NCBI GenBank assembly: GCA_039934135.1
Contig: JBDTMT010000001.1
Coordinates: 1 to 46,355, forward strand
Origin: a bacterium
GTDB taxonomy: Bacteria; Desulfobacterota; Binatia; HRBIN30; CADEER01
Reading direction: 5' to 3'
DNA length: 46,355 nucleotides
This document shows, in pieces, positions 18,546 to 44,725 of the stretch (its first letter is position 1; each line of letters begins with the position of its first letter). A model generated the notes under the pieces. That model was given only the letters and a program-made list of their open reading frames with translations, had not been told where the DNA came from and did not search any database. Both the position numbers and the translations under genes were made by a program.

Positions 18546-18654
18546 TTCCTTGCGGTATCCGCATCCTAAGAACGCGCCCCATGCCGCCCCATCGATACGC
18601 TGCCGAGGGCCGATCACTGCGTGCGCCGTCCCGTCGCGCGGTGAATGCGTGCGC

Positions 18655-22208: not shown

Positions 22209-22347
22209 ACTGCGTCGTCCGTCGGCGTCTCGGCCGCACGGGGCCTCCGCCGCTGCTTCCCGCGGCCGGGCCCTCTGCCCCCCTCGTAGCGACGGAGAGC
22301 AGGCACGTCGGGAACGGGCAACGAGATCTCCGTGCGGAGCGCTGTGA

Positions 22348-23526: not shown

Positions 23527-23527
23527 T

Positions 23528-26599: not shown

Positions 26600-26673
26600 G
26601 TGGCGCCTCCTTCGTGTTGATCGCGACCGCTGTAGGAGATGGAAGCGCAGTACCGCGCGACCTCGCCTCGCTG

Positions 26674-26689
26674 CAATCAGGGATATCCC
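26674..26689 (-). promoter_or_regulatory. Possible degenerate island motif (GGGATATCCCTGATTG in patatin orientation; contains the perfect palindrome GGGATATCCC)
   Basis: 74 nt upstream of the patatin start. Matches GGGAAGTCCCAACTTG at 11/16 positions, with the TCCC and TTG blocks at the same spacing. Confidence 0.3.
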
Positions 26690-26770
26690 ATATCGCCATT
26701 GTCGAGCGCATCGGCGAGCGGCCGCTCACGTGCAGGCTGAATCGCACGGTCACATCACAGGAGCACATGC

Positions 26771-26786
26771 GGGTATTCCCCAGTTG
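26771..26786 (+). promoter_or_regulatory. Possible degenerate island motif (GGGTATTCCCCAGTTG)
   Basis: 99 nt upstream of the 26886 start, oriented toward it. Matches GGGAAGTCCCAACTTG at 12/16 positions. Confidence 0.3.
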
Positions 26787-26885
26787 TTAGGCCCGCCGCC
26801 GATCTGACAAAGGCGTTACGCACCCTGCTTGCGCTCGTGTCGAAAGAGCAGGTGCTCGTACGGGACTACATAGCGAGAGGTCTCG

Positions 26886-28871: not shown

Positions 28872-30330
28872 TCACTGCGCCCGCGCCTGCGGCTGGCGGC
28901 GTGACGCTATCGGACGAGCGGTGTCGGCCGCGGGCTCCATCGTCGCTGCGGCGCTCGCGCTGGCGGCCTGCGGCGGCGGCGCGGGTTCGAGCGGCGGAGG
29001 CCTGGCATTCCGGGCGGTGTGGGAGCGCGCGGCGATCATCGCCGAGCAGCCGGTGGGTTGCGGGATGCCGCGTCCCACAGCGGGGCCCGGAGGATTCGGT
29101 GCCGAGATTCCCGCCGCGGTATCGCTGATCCAGATTCAGATCGAAGCCGCGAACGGCCGTGCCTGCTGCGTTCGCTTGGAAAAGCGCGCGGATCGTCGGC
29201 GGGTGTCGTTCGTCGATGTGCCCGCCGGTCAGGCGCAAGTGACGATCAGTGGCTTCGCGGGCCTGGAGTACGCTCCGCGCCTGGCGCTGCCGGAATGCCG
29301 GCTGGACCCGGCTGCGGACAACCCGGTGAGTTCACCCTGCACCGGCGGCTCACCGGACATCTCCCCCAATCCCAGCTTCCAGAGCGCCCCGACGTGCGTC
29401 GACATTCCGTCTGCCGGAACCCGCGACGCCGGGAACATATCCATTTTCGCGCGGCCGTTCGTCCTGCTTGGCGACTGTGACGGGCCGCAGCTGGTACCGC
29501 CCCCACGTGGAACCGCGAGCGCGACGATCGCTTTCACCGTCGCCGACGCAGGCGGAGCGATCCGACCGGATTCAATACGCGCCGCGGTACTTCAGGGTAG
29601 CCAGACCGTGGAGGTGGCCCTCGGCGCGCCGACGTCATGCGACGACGGGGCCGACCCCAAATGCAGTTGCGGAGCGGAGCCGCTGCAAGTGACGGGAGTC
29701 CGCAATCTGGGTCGAATCCTGGATCGCAGCCTGCTTCAGCCTGGTCCGGCACGCCTGCAGATCTCGGCGACAGACCTTGGCGGCCAGACGACGGAGTTCA
29801 CCTACGGATTCACCTACGCGATTCCCACCGTCACGGAGACCCCGACGCCGACCGCCACACCGTCACTGACTCCGATACCGACCGAGCCCCCGACCCCGAC
29901 GCCGCCGATCGTGCTGCGCATCATTGGCGATCGGGTGGTCCCGGGCGAAGTCGCATCGTTGAACGTCAGCCTCGAGGTGCCGCGCGGCGTCAGCGTGGCG
30001 GCGCTCGAGCAGCAGATTGGATTCGTTGCGACCGTCGTCCGACTGAGCGGCTGCGTAAGGGAACCCGCCATCAGGGACCATCGATTCTTTTGGGGGCTCG
30101 ACCCGCCCGGGTGCGAATTCGGTTGCGATATCCTGCACACGACGATCCTTCCCGTCGACGGCTCGCCCCTGCCATCGACTGTGCTCTACACCTGCGGCTT
30201 TAGCGTCGATGACGAGGCTGCGGCGGGCACCTATCCGCTGACGTGCCTCTCCGCCGCCGCGACGGACAGCGAGAACCAGCGCCTGCCGCTGGTCTGCATT
30301 CCCGGCCAGGTCGAGGTGCCGTCGCCGTGA
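28855..30330 (+). CDS. Lipoprotein with Pro/Thr linker and C-terminal cohesin-like beta domain
   Basis: In frame with ORF 28345..30330. Plausible starts at 28840 or 28855. Lipobox LALAAC-GGG. TPTPTATPSLTPIPTEPPTPTPP linker, then IVLRIIGDRVVPGEVASLNVSL...QQIGFVATV (cohesin-like pattern). The stop overlaps the next start (GTGA). Confidence 0.55.
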   Translation: MSTRSDHCARACGWRRDAIGRAVSAAGSIVAAALALAACGGGAGSSGGGLAFRAVWERAAIIAEQPVGCGMPRPTAGPGGFGAEIPAAVSLIQIQIEAANGRACCVRLEKRADRRRVSFVDVPAGQAQVTISGFAGLEYAPRLALPECRLDPAADNPVSSPCTGGSPDISPNPSFQSAPTCVDIPSAGTRDAGNISIFARPFVLLGDCDGPQLVPPPRGTASATIAFTVADAGGAIRPDSIRAAVLQGSQTVEVALGAPTSCDDGADPKCSCGAEPLQVTGVRNLGRILDRSLLQPGPARLQISATDLGGQTTEFTYGFTYAIPTVTETPTPTATPSLTPIPTEPPTPTPPIVLRIIGDRVVPGEVASLNVSLEVPRGVSVAALEQQIGFVATVVRLSGCVREPAIRDHRFFWGLDPPGCEFGCDILHTTILPVDGSPLPSTVLYTCGFSVDDEAAAGTYPLTCLSAAATDSENQRLPLVCIPGQVEVPSP

Positions 30331-31826
30331 CCGACCGCCGGCCGATACACGCCCTGCTCGCCCCGATGATCGCGTCGTGCGCGCTGGCGCTGGCGACGGC
30401 GGGCGCCGCCTGGGCTGCGGAGGCGTCGGAGAATCTCGTTTCGCGCGGTCTGATCCAGTTCCACCGCGCCGACTACGCCGCCGCCCGGCAGTCGTTCGAG
30501 GCGGCGGTCAGCGCGGATCCGGTGAACGTGGAGGCGCGCCACTTCCGGGCGATGACAGCGGCGCGGCTCGGCGATCTTGACGACGCGATCTTCGATCTCG
30601 AGGTCGTCCTGCTCCTCAAGCCGGCGTTCTGCGAAGCGGCGCTGCAGCTCGGCATCGCCTACCTGCAGTTGGGCGACGACGCCGCGGCGATCGGCGCGCT
30701 CGAGCGGGCGCGCCAGTGTCCGGCGCTCGATCCCGACGCGTCGTTGCTGATTGGCATTGCCCGCCTGCACCGCGACGATCTCGACGAGGCGGCGGATGCG
30801 CTGCAGCGTGCCGGGCAGAAAGACGCGTTGCGCGTGACGGCGGACTACTACCTCGGCGTGGCCGGCGCCCGCCGCTGGCAATGGGATGCCGCCGCGGGCC
30901 GCTTCGAGTCGGTGCGTGCGGCGCGGCCCGATGCCGAGATCGGGCTGCAGTCGGATGCCTATCTCCGCCAGTTGCGCCGCTATCATCTCTCCGCAGCCGT
31001 CGGCATCGATTACGACAGCAACGTCGTGCTGGCGCCGTCGAACGACAGCGTCAAGGCCGACGTCGGCATCACCAATCAGGCTGACGGACGGGTTGCGTTC
31101 GTCGTCGGTGCCAGGGCTGCGGCGCTGCGCAGCGAACACCTGCAGCTCGTGCTCGACTACGATTTCTACCAGACCGTGCAATTCCAGCTGCACCAGTACG
31201 ACCTCACCGCCAACCAGCCGGGGGCCCAACTGCTGTTCAATGCCGGGTCGGTCTACGGCGGGGTGATGGGCCGCTATGGCTACTACCTGCTCGATGGCGC
31301 CAGCTTCCTGCAGGATGCCGAGGCGGCTCCCTGGATGGCCGTGCCGGAGAATGATCTCGGCCGCACTGAGGTCTACTACCGGATGCTGTGGCAGGACTTC
31401 TATCTCAGCCCGTTCCGCGGTGTCCGCGACTCCGTCAACAACGCCATCGGCGTCCGCCAGTTCGTGTACCTGCCGCGCGCCGATCGCTATCTCGTCGTCG
31501 GCTATCGCTTCGAGAACCAGGACGCGACGCAAGCCGACGGGGACGCCTTCGCCTACAATGCCAACCAGGTCGAGATCGGCCTCGGCTGGGATCTGACGTC
31601 GACGCTGAACGCCACGCTCGGCTATGCCTATCGCAACGAGGACTATGCCTCTGCCAGCGACGGACGCGTCGACAACACCAACCATGTCACGGTCGCCATA
31701 CGCCAGGGATTGCGCGACTGGTGCTCGATCAGCCTGGTCTATCTGGGCACGTTCAACGACTCGAATCAGTCGGTCTTCACGTATGACCGCAACATCATCT
31801 CCGCGTCGTTCGAGGCGAGGTACTGA
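30327..31826 (+). CDS. Outer-membrane protein: periplasmic TPR domain plus C-terminal beta-barrel (Slam/DUF560-like architecture, tentative)
   Basis: GTG 30327 (alternative ATG 30366). Signal peptide ALALATAGAAWA. TPR-like repeats (YAAARQSFEAAV..., AIGALERA...). Then an amphipathic strand region rich in Y/D/N, ending ...ISASFEARY. Confidence 0.6.
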   Translation: MTDRRPIHALLAPMIASCALALATAGAAWAAEASENLVSRGLIQFHRADYAAARQSFEAAVSADPVNVEARHFRAMTAARLGDLDDAIFDLEVVLLLKPAFCEAALQLGIAYLQLGDDAAAIGALERARQCPALDPDASLLIGIARLHRDDLDEAADALQRAGQKDALRVTADYYLGVAGARRWQWDAAAGRFESVRAARPDAEIGLQSDAYLRQLRRYHLSAAVGIDYDSNVVLAPSNDSVKADVGITNQADGRVAFVVGARAAALRSEHLQLVLDYDFYQTVQFQLHQYDLTANQPGAQLLFNAGSVYGGVMGRYGYYLLDGASFLQDAEAAPWMAVPENDLGRTEVYYRMLWQDFYLSPFRGVRDSVNNAIGVRQFVYLPRADRYLVVGYRFENQDATQADGDAFAYNANQVEIGLGWDLTSTLNATLGYAYRNEDYASASDGRVDNTNHVTVAIRQGLRDWCSISLVYLGTFNDSNQSVFTYDRNIISASFEARY

Positions 31827-31827
31827 G

Positions 31828-32640
31828 ATGTCCGGACGCACGTGGGTCAGGGTGATCCTGCTCCTGTTGCTGGTGCCGCAACGCGGTGCGGCGGCGGAGC
31901 TCGTCGGCTACCTGGCCGAGTTTTCCGACGTCGTCTACTGCCCGCGCGACGCCGCGCCATTGCGGCAGAGCGAGAAGCCGCGCGATCTCCACTTTGGCGA
32001 CGCCGTGATCACGCGCGACGCGCCCGAGCGCAGCGCGGCGGCGAGAGTGTTTCTCGCCGATCGCCAGACGATCGCCATCGCCGGCAACTCCGAGCTCGTC
32101 ATCTCCGGCGTCGACACGCCCGACGGCATGCGCTCCACCAGCGTGCGACTGAACAGCGGCCGCATCCGCGTCTACGTCAGCCCGGGCGCCCACTGTCAGG
32201 TCGAGACGCCTGCCGCCGTCGTCACGTGCCGGCACACCGATTTCGTCGTCGCCGTCGATGCCAGCACCCACGCCACCGACGTCGTCGTCATCGACGGCAT
32301 CGTCGAGGTTCGCGGCGTCGGCCCGGGCGCCGACCACCCGGTGACGGTCCTGCCGTACCAGATGCTGCACGTGGCCGTCGGTGGTCCAGCGGGCCAGCCC
32401 AGCGTCGTCGGTGACGCGGCGCGCGCCCGCTACAGCGCCGGCCTGGATCTCATCGGAGACGGGACCTCCGAGCGTCTGGAGATCGGCCAGCGGCTCGCCG
32501 ATGGCAGCGAGGTGCTCACCGTCGATCGGCCGGACCCACCTTCTTCGGAGCCCTGGGAACCCGGTCCCCGTCAGGAGCAACCGGGAACGATTGCCAATCC
32601 GCTGTTTGGAGTGCCCGGCAATCTGATCGTTGACTATTGA
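31828..32640 (+). CDS. Secreted FecR-domain protein
   Basis: ATG 31828, 2 nt after the previous stop. Signal peptide VILLLLLVPQRGAAA. FecR-like core ...IAIAGNSELVISG...VRLNSGRIRVYV...VETPAAVVTCRHTDFVVAV...VVIDGIVEV. Confidence 0.6.
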   Translation: MSGRTWVRVILLLLLVPQRGAAAELVGYLAEFSDVVYCPRDAAPLRQSEKPRDLHFGDAVITRDAPERSAAARVFLADRQTIAIAGNSELVISGVDTPDGMRSTSVRLNSGRIRVYVSPGAHCQVETPAAVVTCRHTDFVVAVDASTHATDVVVIDGIVEVRGVGPGADHPVTVLPYQMLHVAVGGPAGQPSVVGDAARARYSAGLDLIGDGTSERLEIGQRLADGSEVLTVDRPDPPSSEPWEPGPRQEQPGTIANPLFGVPGNLIVDY

Positions 32641-35600
32641 GCTGGTGCGCTCCAGAGCGCCACCTTCGGCCAGGCCGCGGGTGGGTCGCTGCGCGGAGGG
32701 CGTGGGCACGCAAACATCGTGGCCGCGGCTGGCGTTGGAATGGCGCGGGACTCTTTGGATCGACGCAGCAGCTCGTCAACCGGCACGAAATCGAACCATC
32801 TGTGGATCCGAGCGGTACCGTCAGCACTCGCGGTCGCGACTGCTAGACCATCGGGGCGGAAAGCCACCTGCATCACCGGCCCCGTGTGGCCTGGTAACTC
32901 GCCGATCTCAGTTCCTGTCGCGCTATCCCAGATACGCACTCGTCCTTCCTCGTCGGCTGTAATGACCTGTGCGTTGGCGCCTGGCCGGAAGCGCGCGCTC
33001 CGCATCGGCGTCTGGGTTCTTGCCGGTCGGAGCGTTACGGCATGCCGTCCGCTGGCTACGTCCCAGATGTGCGCCCCACCGTCTGCGGCTGACGCGATGA
33101 GGAGTCGTCCATCGTCGCTGAAGGCGAGATCGTTCACGCGCCCGTTCGCGCCCGCCAGTGAACGCGAAGTGGCGGTCGGTCCCAAGCTCCAGAGCCGCAC
33201 CGCGCCATCGCTGCCGCCAGCGGCGACCAACGCATCGTCCTGCGGGCTGATGGCTGCCGTGGTGAGCGCGCCGAGATCGACGTCCGGACCCTCGTGCGCC
33301 CAGTCTGCGGCGCGCCATCGCTGCAGCATGCCGTCGGACGCGGCGATCAGGAGCGCGCCGTCATGCGCGAAGGTGACGAAGCGCAGAGTCTCGCCCGCCG
33401 CGCAGCTCACCTCTGCGATGTGCGCGCAGCTCCTAGCGTCCCAGATCGCTACCGTGCTGCCGTCATCGCCGGTTGCCAGCCATCGTCCCTGGCGATCCAT
33501 CGCGACGTATCGCAGCGCCGCCGGGCCACTGGCGAGGGGCGGCGGCGTTATCGTGGCGATCAACTCGCCCACGGCGTTCCACGCCCGCGCGGCGCCATCG
33601 CTGCTCGCGGTGAGCAGGTACTGACCGTCGTCGCTGAACACGGCCGCGTTGACGGCGTCGTCGTGCCGCATCGGTCGGCCGGCGTCGTCGGATGCCCAGA
33701 GCCGCACACCGTCATCTGCGCCGGTGGCGAGGAGATGGTCTTCGGCACTGAACGCCAGCCCCCGCACGGCCGAATCGTGTCCCGCCAGGCGGGCGATCGG
33801 TTCGCCGGTGCTCGCCTCCCAGACGATCGCCGTACCATCCGTGCTGGCGGTCGCGACGAAGCGACCGCGCGCGCTGTATTCGACCGCGGTGATCGGGCCC
33901 GTATGTCCCTTGAGGCGTATTGGTGCGTCCGGTTCCCCCCAGATGGTCGCGGTGCCGTCCTCATAGCCGCTCAGCGCGAAGCGACCGTCGGGGCTGAACG
34001 CGATATCATTTGACTGGGTGACCTTGGGCCGGCTGTCAGGCGTGAAGGCGAACTGGATCCCGGCGCCATATTCTTCGAGCTGCTGCTCGGTCAGTGAGCC
34101 GGACGTCCAGGTTCCGTCGCTCGTCCACACGCGGAGTCGATGGCCATCGATGTAGGCGAGGTGTCGACCGTCTGGGGCGAACGCCGCACTGGCGACCGGG
34201 CGGTGCTCGACGGGAAGATCCGCGATCTCGGCCCCGTCCCGCCACAAGCGCACGCCCTTGGCGCCGGCGGTGAGCACGATCGCATCATCCGGCGTCAGCG
34301 ACACCGCCTCCACGTTGTCGTCGGGATCGAGGGCCCGCGGATGGTCGCTCAGCGATATGTCGCGCACGAAGGCACCGTTCCAGGTCCCGACGACGATGAT
34401 CGGCTTGCGTGTGCCCAAGGCCACCGCCCGCACCTGGCCGGGGTCCGCCGCCCAGCGTAGTTGCCGGTCGACGGCGAGGTTGCGCCGTAAGGCCGGCGCG
34501 CCGATGGCCGGGCGCAACGCGGTCGCTTTGCGCGCCAGGCGGACGCTGTCCTGCGGCCGTCGCTCGCGCGCCGCCTCGGCGTCGCTGACCAGCTGTTGCG
34601 CGTCGGCCGTCTGCCTGGCGACATATGCGCGGATGCCCAACCAACCGGTGATCGATAGGACCACGAGCGCGCCCGTGGCCGCGGCGCCGAGGGACAGCCG
34701 GCGGCCGCGGCGGGCGCCAGCGCTGGCAGCGATGAACTGCGTTTCGACGTCGTCGAGACTGAGCCAACCGTCGCGTTGTAAGGCGCGCGCCTCATCGAGC
34801 GCACGGCCGCGGTAGAGATCCCCCGGGTCGCGTCCGGCGCAGTTCCAAAGCGCGGCGGCGGCGGCGAGCCGCGACCGCGCGCGCAGTTGCTCGCTGTGGC
34901 TCTGCACCCAGGAGCGCAGGGGCTCGAAATGCGTGATGAGCGTCTCATGGGCGAGCGTGACGCAGCTTTCGCCATTTTGGTCGGTGGCGATGAACAGGCG
35001 CGCGCCGATGAACGCGTCGATGAAGGCCCGCCGATGCGGGTCGCTCGCCAACGTCGCCATCCGCGCGTAGCGACGCTGGACGCGCTCGCCCGATGTCTCA
35101 CCGAGGGAGGGCGCGGCCGGGGAGATTTGCACGAGGTGCGCGAAGACGTCGCCAGCGGTGTTCCGGGCGGTCGGATCGAGACGGTCCCAGGTGTCGCGCG
35201 CACGCCGGTTGATCGCGCCCTCGAGGCCGCCCATCGCGTCGTAGGCGGCATGGGTGAGGACGCGGTCCGCGGTTCGCTGCGCGTACAGCGCGTCGAGCAC
35301 GAACTGCAACAGCGGGAGGTTCTGGGGCGAGGCGATGGCGTCGTCGCGCAGGCGCTCGTCCAGCAGCTGGCCGGTCTTGGGGTGCGCCTCGAAACGCAGC
35401 GCAGCCAGGCGGGCGGGCAGGCGGATCATCTGGCCGACTTCGGCGGCATCGGGCCAGCGCAGGTCGTATTGCCCGTTGCCGAGCTTGAGCTCGTCGAGTT
35501 CGGGGAGCTCGTGGCAGCGGGCATAGAAGTCGCTGCGCAGCGTCGCCAGCACGTGTACGCCACGGCGAACGAGACGATTGACGACGGCCATGAACGCCGC

Positions 35601-36800
35601 GCGCTGTTCGCGTGTGATCTGCTCGTCGAACAGCTCCTCCATCTGGTCGATCACCAGCACCAGTCCAACCTTCGGTGCCTTCAGATCGGACAGCTTGGCG
35701 CGCACCTCGTTCGCCTCCGCCGTTCGCTCATCGCGCTCGAGGCTGTCGATGTAATCGTCGATGGTTTTTGCCTGCTTCCCCCGTTCCAGTTGGCCGGCTT
35801 GCAGCAGCGACTCGCGCAACGCGCCCACCGTCTCGTCCAACGCGTTGCGCAGGCGTTCGGCGGTGACCTCGCCGGCGGCCAAACACGGGAGCGCGGTGGG
35901 TCCGATCAGTGCTTGGGCGAGTGCCGCCAGCGGGTCGGCGCCGGCTTGGCGCGGTCGCAGGATGGCGTGACGCCACACCTCGATCGCGCCGACGGCGCGG
36001 GCGCGGAAGAGGCGTGGCAGCACGCCCGCACGCAGCAGTGACGATTTGCCGCTGCCGCTGACGCCGAGGACCAGGACGAAAGGCCGGGCATCGGCCGCCT
36101 GGCGATTGAGCTGATCGAGGATGCCGGTGATGGCGCCGGTGCGGCCGAAAAAGATCGCCTCGTGCTGCAGGTCAAAGGCCTCCAGGCCGCGATATGGCGA
36201 GTCGGGCCACGGGGGGTCCTCATCCCCTCCTGTCTCCGAGACGGACAGGGCACGAGTGACCAGCTCGGTCAGGTCCTCGCCCAGGAGCTGGGCGAACTCC
36301 TGGGCACTGGCGTAGCCCTTGTAGGCACCTTTCCACGCGCCATCGTCGGTGCGAATCTGACGTTCGAGGAACGCCGTGAGGCGCTCGTGCTGCTGCTTGG
36401 CGTCCTCCCAGGTCTTGGCAGGATAGTTGACCGGGCGGCTGTTGCAGTACAGCAGCACACGCGGCGTTCCACGGGCGCGTCCAGCCTCCAAGGCGGTCTC
36501 GAGCTCATAGGCCGTGCCCGACTCGTAGCGCGTGCCGTCCGCCCGCTTGTAGCGGTCCCCTGTCAGTGGCGTGCCCATGCGGCTCCAGACGACTCCGACG
36601 ACGATGTCGCAGGAGGCCGCTTCGCGTAGCGATTCCTGCGGAGCCTTGGCCGCTTCCAACGGCTGCGATTCCCAGAAGTACGATCCGATCGTCGCCTGGT
36701 TGGCGAACTCCCGGCCGAGTTGCTCGATGACCCGTCGCGCTTCCTCGCGCTCGACGCGCACGTCGCTCGGTGAGGAGAGGAAGATGCTGAATTTCCGCAT
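32634..36800 (-). CDS. DUF4062/TIR-like N-domain, STAND-type P-loop NTPase (nSTAND-like), single TM helix and WD40 beta-propeller repeats
   Basis: ATG 36800 (alternative GTG 36818). FSIFLSSPSDVRVEREEARRVIEQL...CDIVVGVVWSRMGT...GTAYELETAL. Walker A GVSGSGKSSLLRAG, Walker B LVLVIDQMEELF. Hydrophobic helix LGAAATGALVVLSITGWLGI. Many GH...W(D/E) WD40 units to the C-terminus. Confidence 0.8.
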   Translation of the reverse strand: MRKFSIFLSSPSDVRVEREEARRVIEQLGREFANQATIGSYFWESQPLEAAKAPQESLREAASCDIVVGVVWSRMGTPLTGDRYKRADGTRYESGTAYELETALEAGRARGTPRVLLYCNSRPVNYPAKTWEDAKQQHERLTAFLERQIRTDDGAWKGAYKGYASAQEFAQLLGEDLTELVTRALSVSETGGDEDPPWPDSPYRGLEAFDLQHEAIFFGRTGAITGILDQLNRQAADARPFVLVLGVSGSGKSSLLRAGVLPRLFRARAVGAIEVWRHAILRPRQAGADPLAALAQALIGPTALPCLAAGEVTAERLRNALDETVGALRESLLQAGQLERGKQAKTIDDYIDSLERDERTAEANEVRAKLSDLKAPKVGLVLVIDQMEELFDEQITREQRAAFMAVVNRLVRRGVHVLATLRSDFYARCHELPELDELKLGNGQYDLRWPDAAEVGQMIRLPARLAALRFEAHPKTGQLLDERLRDDAIASPQNLPLLQFVLDALYAQRTADRVLTHAAYDAMGGLEGAINRRARDTWDRLDPTARNTAGDVFAHLVQISPAAPSLGETSGERVQRRYARMATLASDPHRRAFIDAFIGARLFIATDQNGESCVTLAHETLITHFEPLRSWVQSHSEQLRARSRLAAAAALWNCAGRDPGDLYRGRALDEARALQRDGWLSLDDVETQFIAASAGARRGRRLSLGAAATGALVVLSITGWLGIRAYVARQTADAQQLVSDAEAARERRPQDSVRLARKATALRPAIGAPALRRNLAVDRQLRWAADPGQVRAVALGTRKPIIVVGTWNGAFVRDISLSDHPRALDPDDNVEAVSLTPDDAIVLTAGAKGVRLWRDGAEIADLPVEHRPVASAAFAPDGRHLAYIDGHRLRVWTSDGTWTSGSLTEQQLEEYGAGIQFAFTPDSRPKVTQSNDIAFSPDGRFALSGYEDGTATIWGEPDAPIRLKGHTGPITAVEYSARGRFVATASTDGTAIVWEASTGEPIARLAGHDSAVRGLAFSAEDHLLATGADDGVRLWASDDAGRPMRHDDAVNAAVFSDDGQYLLTASSDGAARAWNAVGELIATITPPPLASGPAALRYVAMDRQGRWLATGDDGSTVAIWDARSCAHIAEVSCAAGETLRFVTFAHDGALLIAASDGMLQRWRAADWAHEGPDVDLGALTTAAISPQDDALVAAGGSDGAVRLWSLGPTATSRSLAGANGRVNDLAFSDDGRLLIASAADGGAHIWDVASGRHAVTLRPARTQTPMRSARFRPGANAQVITADEEGRVRIWDSATGTEIGELPGHTGPVMQVAFRPDGLAVATASADGTARIHRWFDFVPVDELLRRSKESRAIPTPAAATMFACPRPPRSDPPAAWPKVALWSAPAQ

Positions 36801-36850
36801 GTCGTTGGGTGGCCGCACGCCACCGGCATCGGCCCGCGCTCCGCCGCCGT

Positions 36851-36870
36851 CAATTGGGACTTTCCCGTAG
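36851..36870 (-). promoter_or_regulatory. Island motif copy (CTACGGGAAAGTCCCAATTG in gene orientation), abutting a TTGACG -35-like hexamer
   Basis: 50 nt upstream of the ATG at 36800, oriented toward it. The TTG of the motif is part of TTGACG (36848-36853, minus strand). Confidence 0.5.
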
Positions 36871-37021
36871 AAGGTTCACACGGAGCCACCGAGCCGTCTC
36901 CCGTCGCGCCCCCCAATCCCGGCCGAGTCGCCCGTCGTTGCGTGATTCGCGGCCCTTGCCGCTGCCGGCCGCGCCACCTACAAGCCGTCGACGGCGGAGC
37001 GCGCCGCAACGGAGGGCCGTC

Positions 37022-37702
37022 ATGATCACGCGCCGTGAAACCCTGCGCCAGCTGCTGATCGGCACAGTCGGGCTATTCAGCGCCGCGGGCTGTGCCAGAC
37101 TGAGCGCCGAGGCACCCTCCATGGCCGCGTCGTCCTATCGCCGGGTATTTCTTTTCAGCGGGCATATGATCGACGCAGCGGGCCGCGCCACGCCGCGCTT
37201 TCCGGCCGACAAGGAGGCGATCGCCGCCGCCGCCATCGGCGCCGCGCTCGACGCTCGCGGCTGCGGCGGCGGCGACCTCGGCATCTGCGGCGGGGCGTGC
37301 GGCGGCGATCTGCTGTTCGCCGAGGCGGTGCTGGCGCGCGGCGCGCACCTCCAGCTGCTGCTGCCGTTCGACGAGCAGACGTTCCTGAGCGAGTCGGTCG
37401 ATTTCGCCGACGCCGGGTGGCGGCCGCGGTTCTTCGCCGTCAAGCAGAAGCCGCACACCGTGACGCAAGTCGCTCCCGAGGCGCTCGGGCCGCTGCCGCC
37501 GGGTGCCAACCCGTACGAGCGCGAGAATCGCTGGCTCCTCGATACGGCGCTCGCCCACGGTGCCCAGCGACTCGACTTCATCTGCCTGTGGGACGGCGGC
37601 GGCGGCGACGGTCCCGGCGGCACGCGCCACATGGTTGAACAGGTCGAAGCGGCTGGCGCCCACGTCACCTGGCTGGATACCCGCACGCTCTGGACGGTCT
37701 GA
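37022..37702 (+). CDS. Tat-signal lipoprotein consisting of a stand-alone SLOG-like domain (paralog of the C-terminus of 26886..28871)
   Basis: ATG 37022 after GGAGGG. MITRRETLRQLLIGTVGLFSAAGC (twin-Arg plus lipobox). VFLFSGHMID...ACGGDLLFAEA...LLLPF...CLWDGGGGDGPGGTRHM aligns block for block with residues ~470-660 of the 26886 protein. Confidence 0.65.
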   Translation: MITRRETLRQLLIGTVGLFSAAGCARLSAEAPSMAASSYRRVFLFSGHMIDAAGRATPRFPADKEAIAAAAIGAALDARGCGGGDLGICGGACGGDLLFAEAVLARGAHLQLLLPFDEQTFLSESVDFADAGWRPRFFAVKQKPHTVTQVAPEALGPLPPGANPYERENRWLLDTALAHGAQRLDFICLWDGGGGDGPGGTRHMVEQVEAAGAHVTWLDTRTLWTV

Positions 37703-37710
37703 TCGATCGT

Positions 37711-37731
37711 CTACGGGGAAGTCCCAACTTG
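37711..37731 (+). promoter_or_regulatory. Island motif copy (CTACGGGGAAGTCCCAACTTG)
   Basis: Lies in duplication copy 1, 8 nt after the SLOG gene stop. Confidence 0.45.
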
Positions 37732-37871
37732 TCCGCTCCCTTGCCTGTGGGACGGCGGCGGCGGCAACGGTCCCGGCGGCACGCGCCACATGGTTGAACA
37801 GGTCGAAGCGGCCGGCGCCCACGTCACCTGGCTGGATACCCGCACGCTCTGGACGGTCTAGATCGGATCGT

Positions 37872-37892
37872 CTACGGGGAAGTCCCAACTTG
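37872..37892 (+). promoter_or_regulatory. Island motif copy (CTACGGGGAAGTCCCAACTTG)
   Basis: Lies in duplication copy 2. Ends 54 nt upstream of the SARP gene ATG (37947) and is oriented toward it. Confidence 0.5.
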
Positions 37893-37946
37893 TCCGCTCA
37901 CTGACCGAGGCGCTAGCCAGCGTCGGTCGGCAGGAGGAGCGAGGAC

Positions 37947-38927
37947 ATGGCCCGAATCGAAGTGCGGCTCTTTGGACGTTTTGCGCTGTCGCGTGGCGGA
38001 TGCGCGGTCGACAGCATCGGCGCCACCAAGCTGCGCGAGATTCTCTGCTACCTGCTCCTGCACCACGACCGCCCGCATCCGCGCGAGCGGCTGGCCAGCC
38101 TGCTCTGGCCCGACACGACGACCGAACGCTCACGTAAGTACTTGCGTCAGGCGCTCTGGCAGTTGCAGGCGGCGCTGCGTGGCGGCGATCGCGACACGGG
38201 CGCGGATTGGCTGCGGATCGAGACCGACTGGATTCGCCTCGACGTCGACGGCGAGGTCGACGTCGACGTCCTGCGCTTCCAGGCGGCGGTGACGGCCGCG
38301 GCGACCGCCGCCGGCGACGGGCCATTGCCGGCCGAGGTGGCGGCGAGCCTGGAGGCCGCGGTCGAGACATATCGCGGCCCCCTGCTCGAGAATTGCTACC
38401 AGGACTGGTGCCTGCGCGAGCGCGAGCGCCTGCACGATCTCCTGCTCGACGCGCTCGACCTGCTGGCGGCGCATCACGAGGCGGGGCGTCGCTACGCACC
38501 CGCGCAGCAGTGGACCATGCGCCTGCTGCGCGACGACCCGGCCCGTGAGGGCGCCCACCAGCGGCTGATGCGGATACACTACCTCGCCGGCAACCGCACC
38601 CGAGCCCTGCGCCAATTCGACGAGTGCGTCTCGGCGCTGGACGACGAGCTGGGCGTCGAACCGAGCGCCGCGACCACGGCGCTGCGCGATCGCATCCGCG
38701 CCGGCGAACCGGTCTCGCCGGCCGTCGACGCGGGCGCACCCGACCTCGACCATATCCTGCGCCACCTGCGCGACCTCGAACACGAGCTCGCCGGCGTGCA
38801 GGGACATGTCCGCCAACGCATCGCTGAGGTTGAGCGCGTGCGCGCCGGCATGGCCGTGCCGTCCGCCCCGGCCCGCCGCCCGCTCCGCCGCGCGGCGCCT
38901 CTGCCGCGTACCGCGGCGCAGCGTTGA
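37947..38927 (+). CDS. SARP (AfsR/DnrI/RedD) family transcriptional regulator: OmpR-type winged helix plus BTAD
   Basis: ATG after AGGAGG. IEVRLFGRFAL...LREILCYLLLHHDRPHPRERLASLLWPD. BTAD pattern YRGPLLEN...WCLRERERL...LMRIHYLAGNRTRALRQFDECVSALDDELGVEPS. Confidence 0.8.
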   Translation: MARIEVRLFGRFALSRGGCAVDSIGATKLREILCYLLLHHDRPHPRERLASLLWPDTTTERSRKYLRQALWQLQAALRGGDRDTGADWLRIETDWIRLDVDGEVDVDVLRFQAAVTAAATAAGDGPLPAEVAASLEAAVETYRGPLLENCYQDWCLRERERLHDLLLDALDLLAAHHEAGRRYAPAQQWTMRLLRDDPAREGAHQRLMRIHYLAGNRTRALRQFDECVSALDDELGVEPSAATTALRDRIRAGEPVSPAVDAGAPDLDHILRHLRDLEHELAGVQGHVRQRIAEVERVRAGMAVPSAPARRPLRRAAPLPRTAAQR

Positions 38928-39062: not shown

Positions 39063-42000
39063 CTACTTGCGGGGTCGTCGCGTCGCTTGGCCCTGCTTGG
39101 CGCGCGGCGTCGCGGCCGGCTTCTTGCGGCTCGGCTTGGCGGCTGGCATCTTACCGCGCGGCTTGCCGGCAACACGCTTGGGCTTCCTCGCCGGGGCGGC
39201 CGGAGACGCGACCGGCGCGGCGCCGGCGGTGAGGTCGTCGCGCAAGCCATCGAGCCCGGCGCGCAGCCGCTTGCGCCGATCGGCGGCCGGCTGCAACACG
39301 GTCATCTCGATCAGGAACTCCAGCTGCTCGACGATCGAGCTGAGCTCGCGCGGGCTGGCGGCGCGGCGGTGCAGGTTCGCGTAGGTCGTGGAGATCGACG
39401 TCCGCACGGTGGCCTGGTCGAGATCGCCGCTGAGCAGATGGATGAGTACGTCGCAGTCGGGCGCCACGGTGCCGGCCCAGAAATCCGGTTGGCGCGTGTC
39501 GCGCTTTACGCCTTCTCCGCGCGCTTCCTGCAGCCAGCGTGCGACGTCGACGCCCGACTTCCCGCCCGCCCAGTCATACAGGATCTCGGCCGTCAGCCAG
39601 TTGAGCAGCGGGTAGGGGTCGCCCACCGTGAAGGTTCGCTCGCCTTCGCCGGGACCGTGCGCCTCGCGGTAGCAGCTGGCCATCTTCTTCAGCGCGGCGC
39701 GCCGTTGATCGCCGCTCGTCAGCTGCGCCTGACGCTTGTACGCGGCGCCCAGCAACGACAGCCGCTCGCCGGTGCGCCCGAGTTCGAGGAGCCGGGTGAG
39801 CCGGTCGATGGCGCCCTGCACCAGGGCCGCCGGCTGCTCGCCCTTGAGCCCATCCGCGACTCCCTTCTGGAGATCGATCGCGGCGCGGCTCTCGAAGTTG
39901 GCGAGTTGCTCGATCGCCGCCACCGACGGCGACCCGTCGGCGGCCAGCGCCCGGCGCAGCTCCAGGACCGCCCTATCGAACCGCCGCAGCTCGCCATAGG
40001 CGATGCCGAGCGCGGCGAGGATATCGCCGCGCAGCAACCAGTCCGGCCGGATGGCGCTGGCGAGATGGTCGAGCCGCTGGAGGAACTGGCCCATCTCCTC
40101 GGGGCCGCAGGTCCTGGCGCGCTGCGCGACATGTTCCAGGTCGCGCAGCGTCTCGACCGCAGCCACCGGCGACGCTGGCGTCGCGTCGTCGCCCGCCGCA
40201 CCGTCCGGAACGAACGTGTAGGCTGGATCGCCGTAGCATTGATAGGCGCCCCAGGTGTTGAAGCCGGGATGGCGGTCGTAGGTGTCGTTGCGCGCCCGCA
40301 GAACGGCCGTCCCGAACGGCGTGCCGCGTAGCAGGTGAGCGTAGAAGGCGGTGGCGAAGGTCTCGGCCGCCGCGTCGTCCACCGCCCACCCGGCGGCGAC
40401 CACGGCGCGCACGCCCATCTCGATGAATTGGGCGGCGATGTTGGCGGCGAAGCGCTGGAAGTGCCCTTCCTGCAGTGGTGCGCTGAGCGGCGTCGCCCGG
40501 TCAACTCGGGCGAGGTGGCAGCAATTGATGAACACCAGCTCCGGCACTCGCCGCATCTGTTTCACGGCGGCCGCGGTGAGGAAGACCCTGTCGCCGATGA
40601 CCATGCCGCTGACCCGTCGCGGTGCGCGCGTACGGGCGGAAGAGGTCGCGCCCGTGTCACCCGCCGGCGCGCACGAGCCGGCGCTGTCGTTGGCGGCCGG
40701 CTCGACCGGGAAGTCATGCACGCCGTGGCCGGCGAGGTGAAGGACGCGATAGGCATTCGCGTGCAGGGCGGTGAGGATCGCGTCCGGATCGCTCTGGATG
40801 CAGGACCGGACCACGAAGCCGGCGCCGCTCAGGCTGCGCTCGACGGCCCGCACCTCGGTGGCGGCGCCCGGCAACGGCGTCGCGAAGCCGCCCGTCTCTG
40901 GGTCGCCGATCAGCAGGGCGGTGCGTTCGGCGGTGATCTCGACCCGCTCGCGATAGTCGTGGGTCTCCAACTGGCGCAGCACGCCGCGCTCGAGGGCCAG
41001 CGGCCGCTGACCCTCCGCCCAACGGTCCTCGAGCAGCTCCCAGGGATAGCGGGCCGCGCACTCGTCGACCACCAGGACCAGCGAGTCGCGATTCGGCATC
41101 TGGTCCTTCAGCGCGTTGGGCAGCAGCATCTCGAACAGGGTGCGGGCGGTCTCCTGGCTTGAGGCCGGCTGGCGCGTGGCGTGATCGAGGAACTGATCGA
41201 CCAGGCTGCGATCGGTAGCGACCAGCTCGACTTCGGCGCGGGCGCGATTGGTCAGCAAGGCGAAGCGCAGCCCGTCCTCGACGCCGCGGATCTGCAGGCG
41301 CTGCCACCATCCCGCGCTCTCTTCGAACAACACCCGCCAGCGCGCGCCGGCACGCTGGACGAGCAGCGGATCATCGATCAGCAGCCCACCGCGCAATTCG
41401 GCGTCGCTCTCCAGGCCGCGCAACGCTCGGGCGGCGTGGATGGCCTGGTCGCCGAACAGCTCGATGAACTCGACTGCGTCGATCAATACCTCGCGGTCGA
41501 GCTGTGCCTGCCGCAGGGCGGAGTTGGTCCGCACCTCGGCCCGCAGGATCGCCGCCACCGACTCGCGCACCGGCAGACCACCCGCGCCAGTGCCGATGAG
41601 CAGCGAGGTCAGGCACACCGAGCGCGGCGCACCGAGCGGAGTCTCCGGGTCCCGCGGCCGCTCGGCGACGGTCATGACGTAGTCGCGCACGCCGGCGGCG
41701 ACCGTGCGGGTGAGGCCGGGCGCCGTCAGCTCGCCCACCTGGCCGAGTCCGACGACGATCGCCCCGCCGCGGCGAAACGGGTCGTTCTGTAGGACGGAGG
41801 CGTGCGTGCCGATCGCCCCCGGGTAGAGCCCGAGCTGCAAACGGTGGCGCAGGTGGCCATCGAGGTGGCGGTCGAGGACCGCTTCGGCGCTGACGATGGT
41901 GTCGCCGGTATAGTGACCGACGATGACCGGGTGGCGGGCGTACGACAGATCGCCGTGCGCGACCGACACTGTGACGCGATGCGCGGGCGGCGCGGCGGCA

Positions 42001-44627
42001 CGGTGGCGGCGCCGCGCGCCAATCGCGGCGCGCGCCAGCTCGTCCTCATCCGGCATGACGTCGGCGATGTCACGCGGCATGGTGAAACGCTCCTCGACGC
42101 CGCGCACCGCCACCGGCGGCGCCGTCGGCAGACGGGTGGTGTTGCCGGTGTGCAGCAGTTCTAGGAGCGCGGTGAACGCCGGGGCGTGGTTGGCGAGGTC
42201 GCCGTGCTCGGCGTCGGCCATGTACCAGGTCTGCAGTCCCTCCGGGATGCCGGTCGCCCACGGCACGCGGCCGTCTCCCCGGCTGGTGGCGACGAAGCGC
42301 AGGCGGTTGCCGGCCTTCTCGCGGGTGTGAAACTCCATTTCCACCGGTGTCGCCGGCGCCCAGCCGGCGACGTAGAGGACGCGATCGGCGTGCGGCAGCT
42401 TGGCGGACAGCCGCGCGCGCGCCGCGCGCGCCGCCTCGAGCGCCGCGCGCGCCGGCGGCACCCAGCCCTGGTTGTCGATGTCGGCGATGCGCGCCCAGGT
42501 GGCGGGTGCGAAGAAGTCCATCGCCGCATCGTCGGGCAGCATCTCCAGCGCACCGGGGAAGCGGGAGAGAATGGCGAGAAGCTCCTGACGCGAGTGGCGC
42601 AGGTCGGCCAGCGCCAGCTTGCGCAGGGTGCCCGAGGTGCCGACCAGCAGGCTGGTGATTTCGTGCGAGCCGCCGTTGGGGGTGCCGAGCATCACCAGGC
42701 GTCCCTGCGGGTGCGCACAGATGCGGTCCCACAGCTCCGGCGCCTGGGCGATCATCATGCGCGCCACCAGGCCGCCCATCGAGTGGGCGAGGAGGCGCAG
42801 CGGCTGGCCGCTGGCCGTGGCGGCGTCGAGCCGCATCCGCACCTCCTGCCCGAGACGCTCCGCTGCCTCGGTGATCGACCGGCGCCAGTCGTACGGGAAG
42901 GTGACGACGTCGTGCGAGTCGCTCAGGAACTCGACCAGGTCACCGTAGGCGAGGCCGACCAGCGACTGGGTATCGACGTTCGGCGCGTCGATGGCGATCT
43001 TGCGCAGACCACCCGTCGCGAGGCTGAGCGGGTTGATCCAGACGCGGCTCCCCCCGGCCGCGAGATGGCTCCCCATGATGCCGGGTATGACGAACACCAC
43101 CGGCCGCGGACCGGCCGGCCCGCGCATTGCCCGCTGCGGCACCTCACGCGACTCGCCGGTCGGGACGCTGAAGCCGCCGTCGCCGTCATCGGCGCGGGTC
43201 AGGCCCGCCACCACCCGCTCGGCGGTGCGGGAGTTGGCGAAGTAGGTGAAGTGGCTGACCTCGGCCCCCTGGTCGAAGAATGCGCGCACCGCGTTGCTGC
43301 GCGGCGCGCCCCCGTACATCGAGCGGGTGTCCACCACCAGGTCGTGGTCGCCGCCGAAGAACAGGTCGGGGATCAGCAGCTTCAGCGTGCCGAGGAAGCC
43401 GCCGCCCTCGGCGTCGCCGGCGACCACCGAGAGGTCGGCGTCGACGGTGCGGGCGGGATTGTTGAGGAGCCGCACGAGCGCGGCCTCCGGCATCATCGCC
43501 TCGAGGCCGGGCAGCGATTTCGGATTGGTGCGCTCGCGGGCCACGGCCAGCGTCAGGTCGACGATGCCCTCGTACAGCGGGTTCTGGTCGAGGCCCGGGA
43601 TGCGCCCGACCAAGTTGGCGAGGACGGAGAGCCAGCGATCGAGCTTGCCGGACGCCAGCGTCGTGCCGCGCGCCGGGCAGGCGACGCGCACGAAGCGTTT
43701 GACGGTGAACTGGCAGGCCTTGTCGTCGAGCAGTGCCGACAGCTCCTCCAACTCGCGGCGGCGGTCGGCCTTCACCGCCGGACTGAGCGCGGCGTCGGCG
43801 TCGGCATCGTCGCCGCCGGCGTACAGATCCAGATCCTTGGCGTCGAAGGGACGCCGATCGCGCTCGGCGACCCGGCAGAGGAGCTCGCCGACCAGACCGC
43901 CACGCGAGTGGCTGACGATGTGCAGCGGGCGACTGGCGAGACGCTTTAGAGCGGTCAGCAGGTCGATGGCGTTGCGCACCGGGCTCTCGCTCAGCGTGCG
44001 ATGCTCGAAGGCGAAACAGGCCTTGCCGTAGGAGTCGCGCAGGCGGCGGAGCTCAGCGGCGCGCGGCGCCGACCACAGCGCGCCGAAGCTGCCGGCGGTG
44101 CTCGAAGCGGTGCCGTGCAGGAAGAGCAGCGCCGGCTGGTCCGCGGCCAGCTTCGGCAGCGTGTCGGAGAGATCGAGCGGCCCATCGAGCGAGCAGGCGA
44201 GGAGTCGCGAGTCGCCCCCCTCCAGCCGCTCTGCCAGCTTGCGCGCGGCATGCTCCTGCGGGCGGATGTCGAAGATCTGGAGTGCCTTGAGCACCAGGGC
44301 GCCGATGCCGCGCGTCTTCAGTCCCACCTGCAGGTAGGGCGAGATGGCGATCTCGTCGCTGCCGACGCTACGCGATGCCGAGCCCGGGAACTCGCGCCGG
44401 AAGTCTTCGAAGCGCATCCAGAGGCGTACGTCGCCTTCGATGTGCAGCTCGATGACATCGTCAGGTGTCACTCCCTCGATGATCACCGGCGCGGCGGCTG
44501 GTCCGCGCGCCGCATCGAGGTGGACGGCGCCGCGGCGCTTAACCGCCAGCAGACCGCCGGCCCGCCGTCCATCGTCGACGCCGCCCGACGGCACGTCGGG
44601 GGTCCCTGGAATGCGCAGCGTGGCCAT
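39063..44627 (-). CDS. Giant (1854 aa) multi-effector protein: two alpha/beta-hydrolase (lipase-like) modules, CHAT protease domain, TPR-like region and basic C-terminal tail
   Basis: Start MATLRIPG (44627) after GGAGAG. LLFLHGTASS...HIVSHSRGG. VVFVIPGIMGSHL...FPYDWRRS...LLAHSMGGLV (LCAT/PGAP1-like). CHAT dyad RVLHLAGHG / LVFINCCHLA. C-terminal helical repeats, then KPKRVAGKPRGKMPAAKPSRKKPAATPRAK. Confidence 0.8.
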   Translation of the reverse strand: MATLRIPGTPDVPSGGVDDGRRAGGLLAVKRRGAVHLDAARGPAAAPVIIEGVTPDDVIELHIEGDVRLWMRFEDFRREFPGSASRSVGSDEIAISPYLQVGLKTRGIGALVLKALQIFDIRPQEHAARKLAERLEGGDSRLLACSLDGPLDLSDTLPKLAADQPALLFLHGTASSTAGSFGALWSAPRAAELRRLRDSYGKACFAFEHRTLSESPVRNAIDLLTALKRLASRPLHIVSHSRGGLVGELLCRVAERDRRPFDAKDLDLYAGGDDADADAALSPAVKADRRRELEELSALLDDKACQFTVKRFVRVACPARGTTLASGKLDRWLSVLANLVGRIPGLDQNPLYEGIVDLTLAVARERTNPKSLPGLEAMMPEAALVRLLNNPARTVDADLSVVAGDAEGGGFLGTLKLLIPDLFFGGDHDLVVDTRSMYGGAPRSNAVRAFFDQGAEVSHFTYFANSRTAERVVAGLTRADDGDGGFSVPTGESREVPQRAMRGPAGPRPVVFVIPGIMGSHLAAGGSRVWINPLSLATGGLRKIAIDAPNVDTQSLVGLAYGDLVEFLSDSHDVVTFPYDWRRSITEAAERLGQEVRMRLDAATASGQPLRLLAHSMGGLVARMMIAQAPELWDRICAHPQGRLVMLGTPNGGSHEITSLLVGTSGTLRKLALADLRHSRQELLAILSRFPGALEMLPDDAAMDFFAPATWARIADIDNQGWVPPARAALEAARAARARLSAKLPHADRVLYVAGWAPATPVEMEFHTREKAGNRLRFVATSRGDGRVPWATGIPEGLQTWYMADAEHGDLANHAPAFTALLELLHTGNTTRLPTAPPVAVRGVEERFTMPRDIADVMPDEDELARAAIGARRRHRAAAPPAHRVTVSVAHGDLSYARHPVIVGHYTGDTIVSAEAVLDRHLDGHLRHRLQLGLYPGAIGTHASVLQNDPFRRGGAIVVGLGQVGELTAPGLTRTVAAGVRDYVMTVAERPRDPETPLGAPRSVCLTSLLIGTGAGGLPVRESVAAILRAEVRTNSALRQAQLDREVLIDAVEFIELFGDQAIHAARALRGLESDAELRGGLLIDDPLLVQRAGARWRVLFEESAGWWQRLQIRGVEDGLRFALLTNRARAEVELVATDRSLVDQFLDHATRQPASSQETARTLFEMLLPNALKDQMPNRDSLVLVVDECAARYPWELLEDRWAEGQRPLALERGVLRQLETHDYRERVEITAERTALLIGDPETGGFATPLPGAATEVRAVERSLSGAGFVVRSCIQSDPDAILTALHANAYRVLHLAGHGVHDFPVEPAANDSAGSCAPAGDTGATSSARTRAPRRVSGMVIGDRVFLTAAAVKQMRRVPELVFINCCHLARVDRATPLSAPLQEGHFQRFAANIAAQFIEMGVRAVVAAGWAVDDAAAETFATAFYAHLLRGTPFGTAVLRARNDTYDRHPGFNTWGAYQCYGDPAYTFVPDGAAGDDATPASPVAAVETLRDLEHVAQRARTCGPEEMGQFLQRLDHLASAIRPDWLLRGDILAALGIAYGELRRFDRAVLELRRALAADGSPSVAAIEQLANFESRAAIDLQKGVADGLKGEQPAALVQGAIDRLTRLLELGRTGERLSLLGAAYKRQAQLTSGDQRRAALKKMASCYREAHGPGEGERTFTVGDPYPLLNWLTAEILYDWAGGKSGVDVARWLQEARGEGVKRDTRQPDFWAGTVAPDCDVLIHLLSGDLDQATVRTSISTTYANLHRRAASPRELSSIVEQLEFLIEMTVLQPAADRRKRLRAGLDGLRDDLTAGAAPVASPAAPARKPKRVAGKPRGKMPAAKPSRKKPAATPRAKQGQATRRPRK

Positions 44628-44725
44628 CACGTCTCTCCGATCGGGTAGCGGGGTGCCGAGCTTTGCCCAAAACAACGAACAACCGAACGACTCGGGGCCT
44701 GGGAGCTCTTGGCAAGCCGTGCGTA

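Follow-up and report, generated by a model that had tools for sequence, protein, structure and literature searches.

Contig JBDTMT010000001.1 of a bacterium of the Binatia lineage HRBIN30 (GenBank assembly GCA_039934135.1) carries, within the 46,355 nucleotides (nt) analysed here and called the window (positions 1 to 46,355; G+C content 68%), an open reading frame (ORF) on the forward strand at 37022–37702 which, together with its product, we name X. The product is a SLOG-fold domain preceded by an N-terminal extension in which an arginine pair and a lipobox cysteine can be recognized. What is new here is probably an exported form, as predicted from sequence, of a SLOG domain belonging to conflict-type systems, present in a tiny clade in which the trait is evolutionarily unstable. 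Whether the extra 33 codons form a twin-arginine translocation (Tat) lipoprotein signal, in a small soil-metagenome clade that includes the window, is in our judgement evenly balanced.

The N-terminal extension of X and its relatives

The 226-residue ORF is present as the initial annotation described it. A GTG start at 36809, which adds an arginine-rich stretch overlapping the start of the divergent gene, was discounted; the internal ATG at 37121 (Met34) is preceded by GAGG only, 8 nt upstream. The features of X are as follows.

37011–37015, forward strand: Shine-Dalgarno-like GGAGG, 6 nt 5' of the ATG at 37022, identified by inspection of the sequence
37022–37702, forward strand: coding sequence of X, 226 amino acids (aa), predicted Tat lipoprotein precursor with a SLOG-fold domain
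37022–37093, forward strand: predicted signal-peptide region, residues 1–24, recognized by rule scan, conservation and third-position G+C (GC3); low predicted local distance difference test (pLDDT) scores and no secondary structure
37031–37036, forward strand: arginine pair, residues 4–5
Residues 10–23: hydrophobic (h-) region, in an uncharged stretch covering residues 10–25
37079–37093, forward strand: lipobox SAAGC, with Cys24 at 37091–37093, fitting a PROSITE PS51257-style rule
37094–37144, forward strand: predicted flexible tether, residues 25–41, with pLDDT 50–67 and no secondary structure
37121–37123, forward strand: codon of Met34, within the tether, equivalent to the usual start codon of cytoplasmic family members
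37145–37693, forward strand: SLOG-fold domain, residues 42–224, supported by alignment, structure model, Foldseek and the ratio of nonsynonymous to synonymous substitution rates (dN/dS)

Up to the cysteine, X reads MITRRETLRQLLIGTVGLFSAAGC. The segment T-R-R-E-T-L-R followed by 16 uncharged residues passes a relaxed form of the Tat rule, which asks for an S/T-R-R-x-F-L-K-like motif and then an h-region of 12 or more uncharged residues, and the likeness to Tat lipoprotein signals extends from the arginine pair of the n-region and the x-x-L-R element to a moderately hydrophobic h-region rich in Gly, Thr and Ser and a terminal [AS]-[AG]-C; X differs from such signals at position RR+3, which is Thr and not Phe, Leu or Val. 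A lipobox rule ([LVI/ASTG]-[ASTG]-[GAS]-C with the cysteine at positions 15–35, a basic n-region and no charge in the six residues before the box) is passed, at Cys24, by X and by its homologs P0002, P0003 and P0005, while P0006, P0007 and P0010, with NAAAC or NVAAC, are borderline. As a control for chance, ATG and GTG starts were scored for the arginine-pair and lipobox rules combined: 2 of the 1,335 starts in the window pass both (X and an unrelated gene beginning MRRRDFLRLTGAAGAALALSGC), and so does 1 of the 15,670 in other high-GC DNA (638 kb). When pooled, the 33 codons of the signal have G+C contents of 0.68, 0.62 and 0.84 at the first, second and third codon positions (GC1, GC2, GC3), which is the coding signature GC3 > GC1 > GC2; the corresponding values for the 150 nt upstream in the window, 0.70, 0.80 and 0.74, show no coding signature.

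Comparable N-termini were sought in the 120 closest homologs and in the 150 top-scoring representatives, and 168 loci were inspected. The combined rules select X, P0002, P0003, P0005, P0006 and P0007 and nothing else credible; P0010, at locus L170, was added on inspection of the DNA, the gene caller having picked a downstream GTG. The extension is thus rare in the family, with seven sequences among about 270 proteins and 168 loci. Up to the cysteine, the six relatives read:

P0002: MITRRETLRQMLIGSAGLFGVAGC
P0003: MIGRRALLRRLAGGLAGLASVAGC
P0005: MISRRRLLRRGLAGVPALFILSGC
P0006: MIGRRTVLRRALAVAPLLFNAAAC
P0007: MIGRRTVLRRALAIAPALVNVAAC
P0010: MMDRRTVLRRTLALTPVLFNAAAC

All seven sequences share M-I/M-x-R-R-x-x-L-R, an uncharged h-region and the cysteine, with the arginine pair, Leu8, Arg9 and Cys unchanged throughout. 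Across 13 columns of the h-region at least 28 replacements have occurred, not one of which introduces D, E, K or R, and the lengths of the signal region differ between sequences by whole codons. At four loci (L001, L003, L004 and L170) an acyl-CoA-ligase-like gene lies upstream, and its stop codon shares bases with the start codon of the signal-bearing gene as ATGA or GTGA, an arrangement typical of a real, coupled start. On account of the background rarity, the GGAGG, the GC3 signature, the conserved features, the whole-codon length differences and the coupled starts, the N-terminus was taken to be a translated and selected signal.

Outside this clade a further candidate was found. The protein encoded at L112 2763–3395, on a soil metagenome contig and 61% identical to X, has a Tat-like, non-lipoprotein N-terminus, MRRREFIAGLGGAAAWPAGAHVQQ, fused directly to the start of the domain. 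Judging from these sequences, the predicted signal of L112 is an independent gain in a separate lineage, and predicted export is an evolutionarily labile trait in the family; that the two independent gains are both twin-arginine signals is in keeping with a domain that acquires its fold in the cytoplasm and could cross the membrane only via Tat. The search for other exported members that the initial annotation had suggested has supplied six relatives with an arginine pair and lipobox, plus L112.

As a separate observation, the start that opens MRRRDFLRLTGAAGAALALSGC appears to be a second twin-arginine lipoprotein signal, indicating that the organism uses this signal type elsewhere. It lies in frame behind an ammonium-transporter-like ORF, in a locus made up of 14202–14618 and 12845–14161 (both reverse strand), and a separate ORF that follows contains the metallophosphoesterase-like motifs GDHVYWD and DDHDYFEDD. 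The locus resembles a PhoD-like Tat lipoprotein gene that a frameshift, or an error in sequencing, has divided in two.

SLOG fold and family of the mature domain

An alignment of 121 homologs (A1) served as input for an AlphaFold (AF2) model of X, which reached a pLDDT of 87 and a predicted template modelling score (pTM) of 0.80. Residues 42–224 form an alternating β/α domain and residues 1–40 are unstructured. The model and a Foldseek comparison place X in the Rossmann-like, three-layer α/β SLOG fold: the best structural match in the Protein Data Bank (PDB) is YpsA (2nx2; E = 1.4e-6, template modelling score 0.65 normalised to the target), followed by DprA, ShosA, YgdH, a MoCo carrier protein, TM1055 and LOG, all of them SLOG proteins, with the N-terminal region of TRPM2 among the lower matches. 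In a viral structure library the matches are DprA-like proteins and SLOG proteins related to YspA/cpYpsA. The statement in the initial annotation that the product is essentially one SLOG domain agrees with these matches. The mature part of X has a dN/dS of 0.23–0.36.

All 28 columns that are invariant in the family alignment are kept in X, including LFSGH..D, GGACGGDL, ER.N and GDGPGGT.H, and the segments G90-G91-A-C-G94-G95-D96 and P198-G199-G200-T201 are invariant or nearly so. The G-G-x-x-G-G-D and P-G-G-T elements are placed where, we assume, LOG has GGGxxGxM and PGGxGTxxE, a correspondence that we take as a lead only; the positions of the catalytic Glu residues of LOG would presumably be His and Met in X. 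X against Pfam gives nothing at E ≤ 10, scans with NCBIfam and PADLOC are likewise empty, weak matches to Pfam YAcAr occur in 14 of the 121 relatives (best E 0.0019), and no family member reaches the Pfam gathering score of the curated SLOG families (YpsA, YAcAr, LOG, DprA, LSDAT, TPALS and the LD clusters). A PDB sequence search suggested a hormone-sensitive-lipase (HSL)-type esterase (E = 0.011), matching GDSAGG to GGACGG; this identity was rejected as an artefact of the glycine-rich loop since an invariant Ala stands opposite the catalytic Ser in the alignment and SLOG is what the fold search gives. On the modelled structure, X is a standalone member of an uncurated family of the SLOG superfamily, with YpsA and DprA as the closest known folds.

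A second copy of the domain lies in the same window:

28314–28868, forward strand: paralogous SLOG-like domain, residues 477–661 of the TIR-like-TPR-S-SLOG protein encoded at 26886–28871

BLASTP aligns residues 40–223 of X with residues 477–661 of this 661-aa product (92/186 identities, 49%, E = 1e-43), covering all four sequence blocks from which the initial annotation had deduced a block-for-block correspondence. Together with the 28 invariant columns, this makes X a member of the family of the TPR-S-associated SLOG-like domain at the C-terminus of the 26886 protein. X is closer to standalone family members (60–88% identity) than to the 26886 domain (49%), and these values rule out a recent duplication of that domain as its source.

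A profile search of 1.84 billion representatives returned 4,178 proteins at E ≤ 1e-3 and 2,377 at E ≤ 1e-10. Among the matches listed from a metagenome scan, the closest relatives were absent. Two architectures dominate, a standalone form of about 193 aa and a C-terminal domain that follows TPR-S/MAP3K_TRAF_bd repeats; the fused forms begin with AAA_35+TIR, ParA-like, SLATT_1, protein kinase or patatin domains, and single examples exist of a C-terminal sigma-54 activator and of a SLOG-TIR fusion. Neighbourhoods were scored, for features within 3 kb, in 86 genome and metagenome loci with at least 2.5 kb on either side, with the following counts.

Patatin and/or TIR-like-TPR-S gene within 3 kb: 68/86 loci
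Patatin within 3 kb, the commonest neighbour: 44/86 loci
TIR-like-TPR-S within 3 kb: 54/86 loci
Both patatin and TIR-like-TPR-S within 3 kb: 30/86 loci
TPR-S fused to the SLOG domain: 33/86 loci

None of 80 genome loci has a signal on the SLOG-like domain, which suggests that the family is normally cytoplasmic. The gene set, consisting of patatin, TIR-like-TPR-S and the SLOG-like domain, either fused or as a separate protein of about 193 aa, occurs in Proteobacteria, Nitrospirota, Chlorobi, Acidobacteria, cyanobacteria and an archaeal metagenome-assembled genome (loci: window 25424–28871, L009–L088 and L089–L168). The window has a canonical copy, in which the 26886–28871 gene adjoins a patatin gene:

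25424–26599, reverse strand: patatin-like phospholipase (Pfam Patatin; PADLOC phospholipase effector)

The 26886 protein itself matches Pfam TPR-S and MAP3K_TRAF_bd, and its N-terminus resembles a PADLOC TIR effector. PADLOC v2 holds no model for the SLOG part of the set, which has the look of a defence-type system that is undescribed or hardly described so far and is put forward here as a candidate.

X shares with YpsA of Bacillus subtilis (2NX2) a single Rossmann-like domain of about 180 aa with glycine-rich loops after the strands, at a sequence identity of 16%, and is set apart from YpsA, YspA and YAcAr by motifs of its own (LFSGHxID, CGGACGGD, ERxN and GDGPGGTxH) and by the predicted export signal. 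DprA/Smf, ShosA (Shosta) and LOG/PpnN have the same fold; X is without the DNA-binding extensions of DprA, and we know of no DprA/Smf-, ShosA- or LOG/PpnN-type protein that is exported. YpsA is cytoplasmic and tied to cell division (PMC6459960). In the BcTir/Tpr defence system of Bacillus cereus, according to a preprint that also lists 'YspA-Tpr' and 'Patatin-Tpr' assemblies (10.1101/2023.05.26.542521), the N-terminal glycosidase of the Tpr protein makes an isomer of cyclic ADP-ribose. The family context shares this parts list of signal-based systems, namely a TIR-like glycosidase with TPR, a SLOG domain and a patatin, and by analogy with Thoeris the family domain would most plausibly bind or process a nucleotide-derived product of the TIR-like module, with patatin as the effector. 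ThsA, the SLOG sensor of Thoeris, is not among the top 50 structural matches to X, and X departs from the Thoeris and Tpr-type context in being detached from TIR-like-TPR-S and patatin genes and in its predicted signal peptide. A literature search for exported SLOG domains or for 'TPR-S' found nothing relevant.

Genomic setting of X and the 18-nt motif

Neither patatin nor TIR-like-TPR-S genes lie within 3 kb of X, which is flanked in the window by genes for an nSTAND1-WD40 protein and a BTAD regulator. The elements around it are listed below.

32634–36818, reverse strand: nSTAND1-WD40 protein, divergent from X (Pfam)
36854–36871, reverse strand: 18-nt motif TCTACGGGAAAGTCCCAA, then TTGACG, in the spacer between X and the nSTAND1-WD40 gene, 36 nt 5' of the start of the latter
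37583–37741 and 37742–37902, forward strand: tandem duplication, 159–161 bp, 97–98% identical (repeat search)
37947–38927, forward strand: SARP-type regulator (winged-helix and BTAD), the conserved neighbour on the downstream side of X (Pfam BTAD)
39063–44675, reverse strand: 1,870-aa hydrolase-CHAT-TPR-S protein, with no SLOG domain (Pfam)

The initial annotation had drawn attention to the STAND-WD40 gene, which is indeed divergent from X; it is absent from L001–L004 and L169–L171 and hence not conserved beside X. The position downstream of X is taken by BTAD in the window, L002 and L003, where the SARP/BTAD protein is 72% identical and syntenic, and by patatin in L004 and L169. The only TPR-S protein near X, the CHAT protein, begins about 1.4 kb downstream on the opposite strand. 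It consists of three DUF7379 α/β-hydrolase stretches, an LCAT-like lipase region, CHAT, TPR-S and a basic C-terminal tail rich in Lys, Pro and Ala, and is without the SLOG domain that usually follows TPR-S; its gene is convergent after BTAD both in the window and in L002 (2435–4333, reverse strand; 72% over 599 aa by tblastn). On the 5' side, the subclade of X is marked by the acyl-CoA-ligase-like gene, present in L001, L003, L004, L169, L170 and L171 and typed by NCBIfam as a generic acyl-CoA ligase below all cut-offs; no remnant of it was found 5' of X in the window.

Further copies of the motif follow X at 37710–37727 and 37871–37888. In the form TCTACGGGRAAGTCCCAA followed by a -35-like TTGxC it lies 36–58 nt upstream of the starts of the nSTAND1, BTAD and 17659–18258 genes, and at all three sites, 36854–36871 (reverse), 37871–37888 (forward) and 18298–18313 (reverse), its orientation matches that of the downstream gene; zero matches are expected by chance. 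Variants occur upstream of the BTAD gene in L002 (about 1370–1410, with two adjacent 17-nt copies) and L003 (about 2800–2830), and repeats of a similar kind are found before the patatin gene of L004. The motif probably serves the island as a common operator or promoter element, and its consistent position and orientation assign it to the nSTAND1, BTAD and 17659–18258 genes and not to X. The island motif that the initial annotation placed in the spacer between X and the STAND-WD40 gene is therefore there, belonging by its orientation to the nSTAND1/BTAD promoter regions. A scan of 36600–38000 for sigma-70 promoters and terminators found nothing.

The duplicated unit comprises the last 118 nt of X and the 18-nt motif, giving BTAD two upstream copies, the second of them 58 nt before its start; neither L002 nor L003 has the duplication. 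What looks like an inverted repeat around X is accounted for by the promoter-motif arrangement together with this window-specific duplication. Its interpretation as the ends of a mobile cassette was considered and ruled out by the start-linked placement, the orientation and the variants in L002, L003 and L004.

Elsewhere in the island, the left part (16500–25417) contains genes for a KAP-NTPase+TIR protein (19257–22208), a TIR protein (22348–23526) and a ParA-like+TIR+pYEATS protein (23519–25417). The ORFs at 16557–17666, 17659–18258, 18400–19446, 28345–30330 and 30231–31841 have no family match, and a FecR-domain gene is located at 31624–32640.

Proposed export of X and its alternatives

Starting from the observed fold, family, signal features and usual partners, we infer a route for the export, lipidation, membrane sorting and ligand of X. 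The precursor would be translated from the ATG at 37022 and fold in the cytoplasm, possibly with ligand already bound; the folded protein would be exported by Tat, lipidated at Cys24 and cleaved before that residue, leaving the intact SLOG domain tethered in the periplasm by about 16 residues. With Ala at position +2, attachment to the outer membrane would be probable under the E. coli rule, assuming a diderm host, and the periplasmic protein would there bind or hydrolyse a nucleotide-type small molecule. The sensor, sequestration and decoy roles that the initial annotation put forward are conjectural. An uncultured Gram-negative bacterium of soil is the probable host; Myxococcales metagenome-assembled genomes supply the closest named matches to one of its housekeeping enzymes, at 69–70% identity, a weak indication. 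Lipidated Tat export is in our view the best reading of X, one that we hold with a confidence of about one half.

Several observations weigh against it. X fails the strict TatP-type expression RR.[FGAVML][LITMVF] at the Thr in RR+3, as does P0002, while orthologs with RRALL, RRRLL or RRTVL pass. The Pfam TAT_signal (PF10518) and TIGR01409 hidden Markov models (HMMs) are silent on X and on five orthologous N-termini, the filters of HMMER being liable to drop short weak matches; the twin-arginine and lipobox N-terminus proposed in the initial annotation is accordingly borne out by rules, background rate and conservation and not by these models. The dN/dS of the signal region is about 0.7–1.3, values near 1 being usual for signal peptides and not decisive. 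A deletion at L002 (P0004, 81% identical) has removed the ligase gene together with some 20 codons from the beginning of the signal, leaving an out-of-frame remnant of lipobox DNA, ctgtgccagactgg, at about 700–778, and in the assembled sequences of L169 (P0008, about 330–425) and L171 (P0011, about 350–449) the n-region and h-region lie in different frames. All three have an intact SLOG domain beginning at the codon equivalent to Met34 of X, and export therefore appears to be dispensable. A downstream start that would leave the protein in the cytoplasm, which the initial annotation had recognized as fatal to export, is thus partly realised in these relatives. Codon 34 is ATG or GTG in each of the ten subclade sequences, which would permit a cytoplasmic isoform. 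Finally, the likely partners (the patatin of L004 and L169, the acyl-CoA-ligase-like protein and the CHAT-TPR-S protein) are without signal peptides, so that a periplasmic SLOG domain would be separated from them, which argues against a simple periplasmic sensor-effector role.

The same observations invite the alternative that X is made from Met34 (37121) and is cytoplasmic, like about 99% of the family. The 33 codons would then be the remnant, decaying or neutral, of an ancestral signal or coupling region and would no longer direct export in this organism. In the alignment, Met34 coincides with the first residue of the 193/194-aa homologs, the three relatives with a frameshifted or deleted signal keep the domain from this very codon, the signal region evolves at a dN/dS of about 1 with the Tat models silent, and the gene that precedes the long start in relatives, and is coupled to it there, has been lost from the window. 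Yet the long ORF is intact, with GGAGG at ideal spacing against a weak GAGG before Met34; the 33 codons carry a coding GC3 signature; the arginine pair, the charge-free h-region and the cysteine have been kept in seven diverged sequences despite the many replacements; and N-termini of this kind arise at a background rate of about 1e-4. We therefore regard a purely cytoplasmic X as rather unlikely, if still a serious contender.

The start-capable codon 34 would also be compatible with dual initiation, in which the ATG at 37022 yields an exported lipoprotein and that at 37121 a cytoplasmic isoform, so that the module would act on both sides of the inner membrane. This codon is present even where the signal is intact, lineages with Val at this position using GTG, and the short form, to judge from L002, L169 and L171, is viable; but no conserved Shine-Dalgarno sequence precedes codon 34 in L001, L003 and L004, and the Val/GTG cases all come from one sublineage, which leaves dual initiation improbable. 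Since Tat exports folded complexes, the signal of X might instead carry a partner such as patatin across the membrane as a hitchhiker, producing an envelope-directed effector complex. The prominence of patatin among the neighbours of the family (44/86 loci) and the signal-less patatin directly downstream of X in L004, with its intact signal, and in L169 speak for this version; in the window, L002 and L003, X has no patatin gene beside it, and we give the hitchhiking version very little credence.

To our knowledge, the SLOG, TIR and patatin immune-type modules characterised so far all work intracellularly. Kaur et al. say expressly that conflict systems of the SLOG/TIR/patatin type show no secretion features (PMC7159879). 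Should export not occur, X would be an ordinary orphan copy of its family. That family, an uncurated SLOG family of about 4,200 representatives with patatin and TIR-like-TPR-S as standard partners, is defined here in either case. If, on the other hand, lipidated Tat export of X takes place, a conserved export signal on a conflict-type module, apparently gained at least twice, would provide a case of a nucleotide-sensor fold in the periplasm. More speculatively, and in our estimate quite improbably, X may be a periplasmic receptor for a nucleotide-derived immune signal that TIR-like-TPR-S proteins would make, sensing or mopping up signal from lysed kin, a form of extracellular alarm sensing, in what is probably a myxobacteria-like, socially living bacterium, or else a ferry for patatin by Tat hitchhiking. 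Either role, if true, would represent the first extracytoplasmic arm of TIR/SLOG-type signalling.

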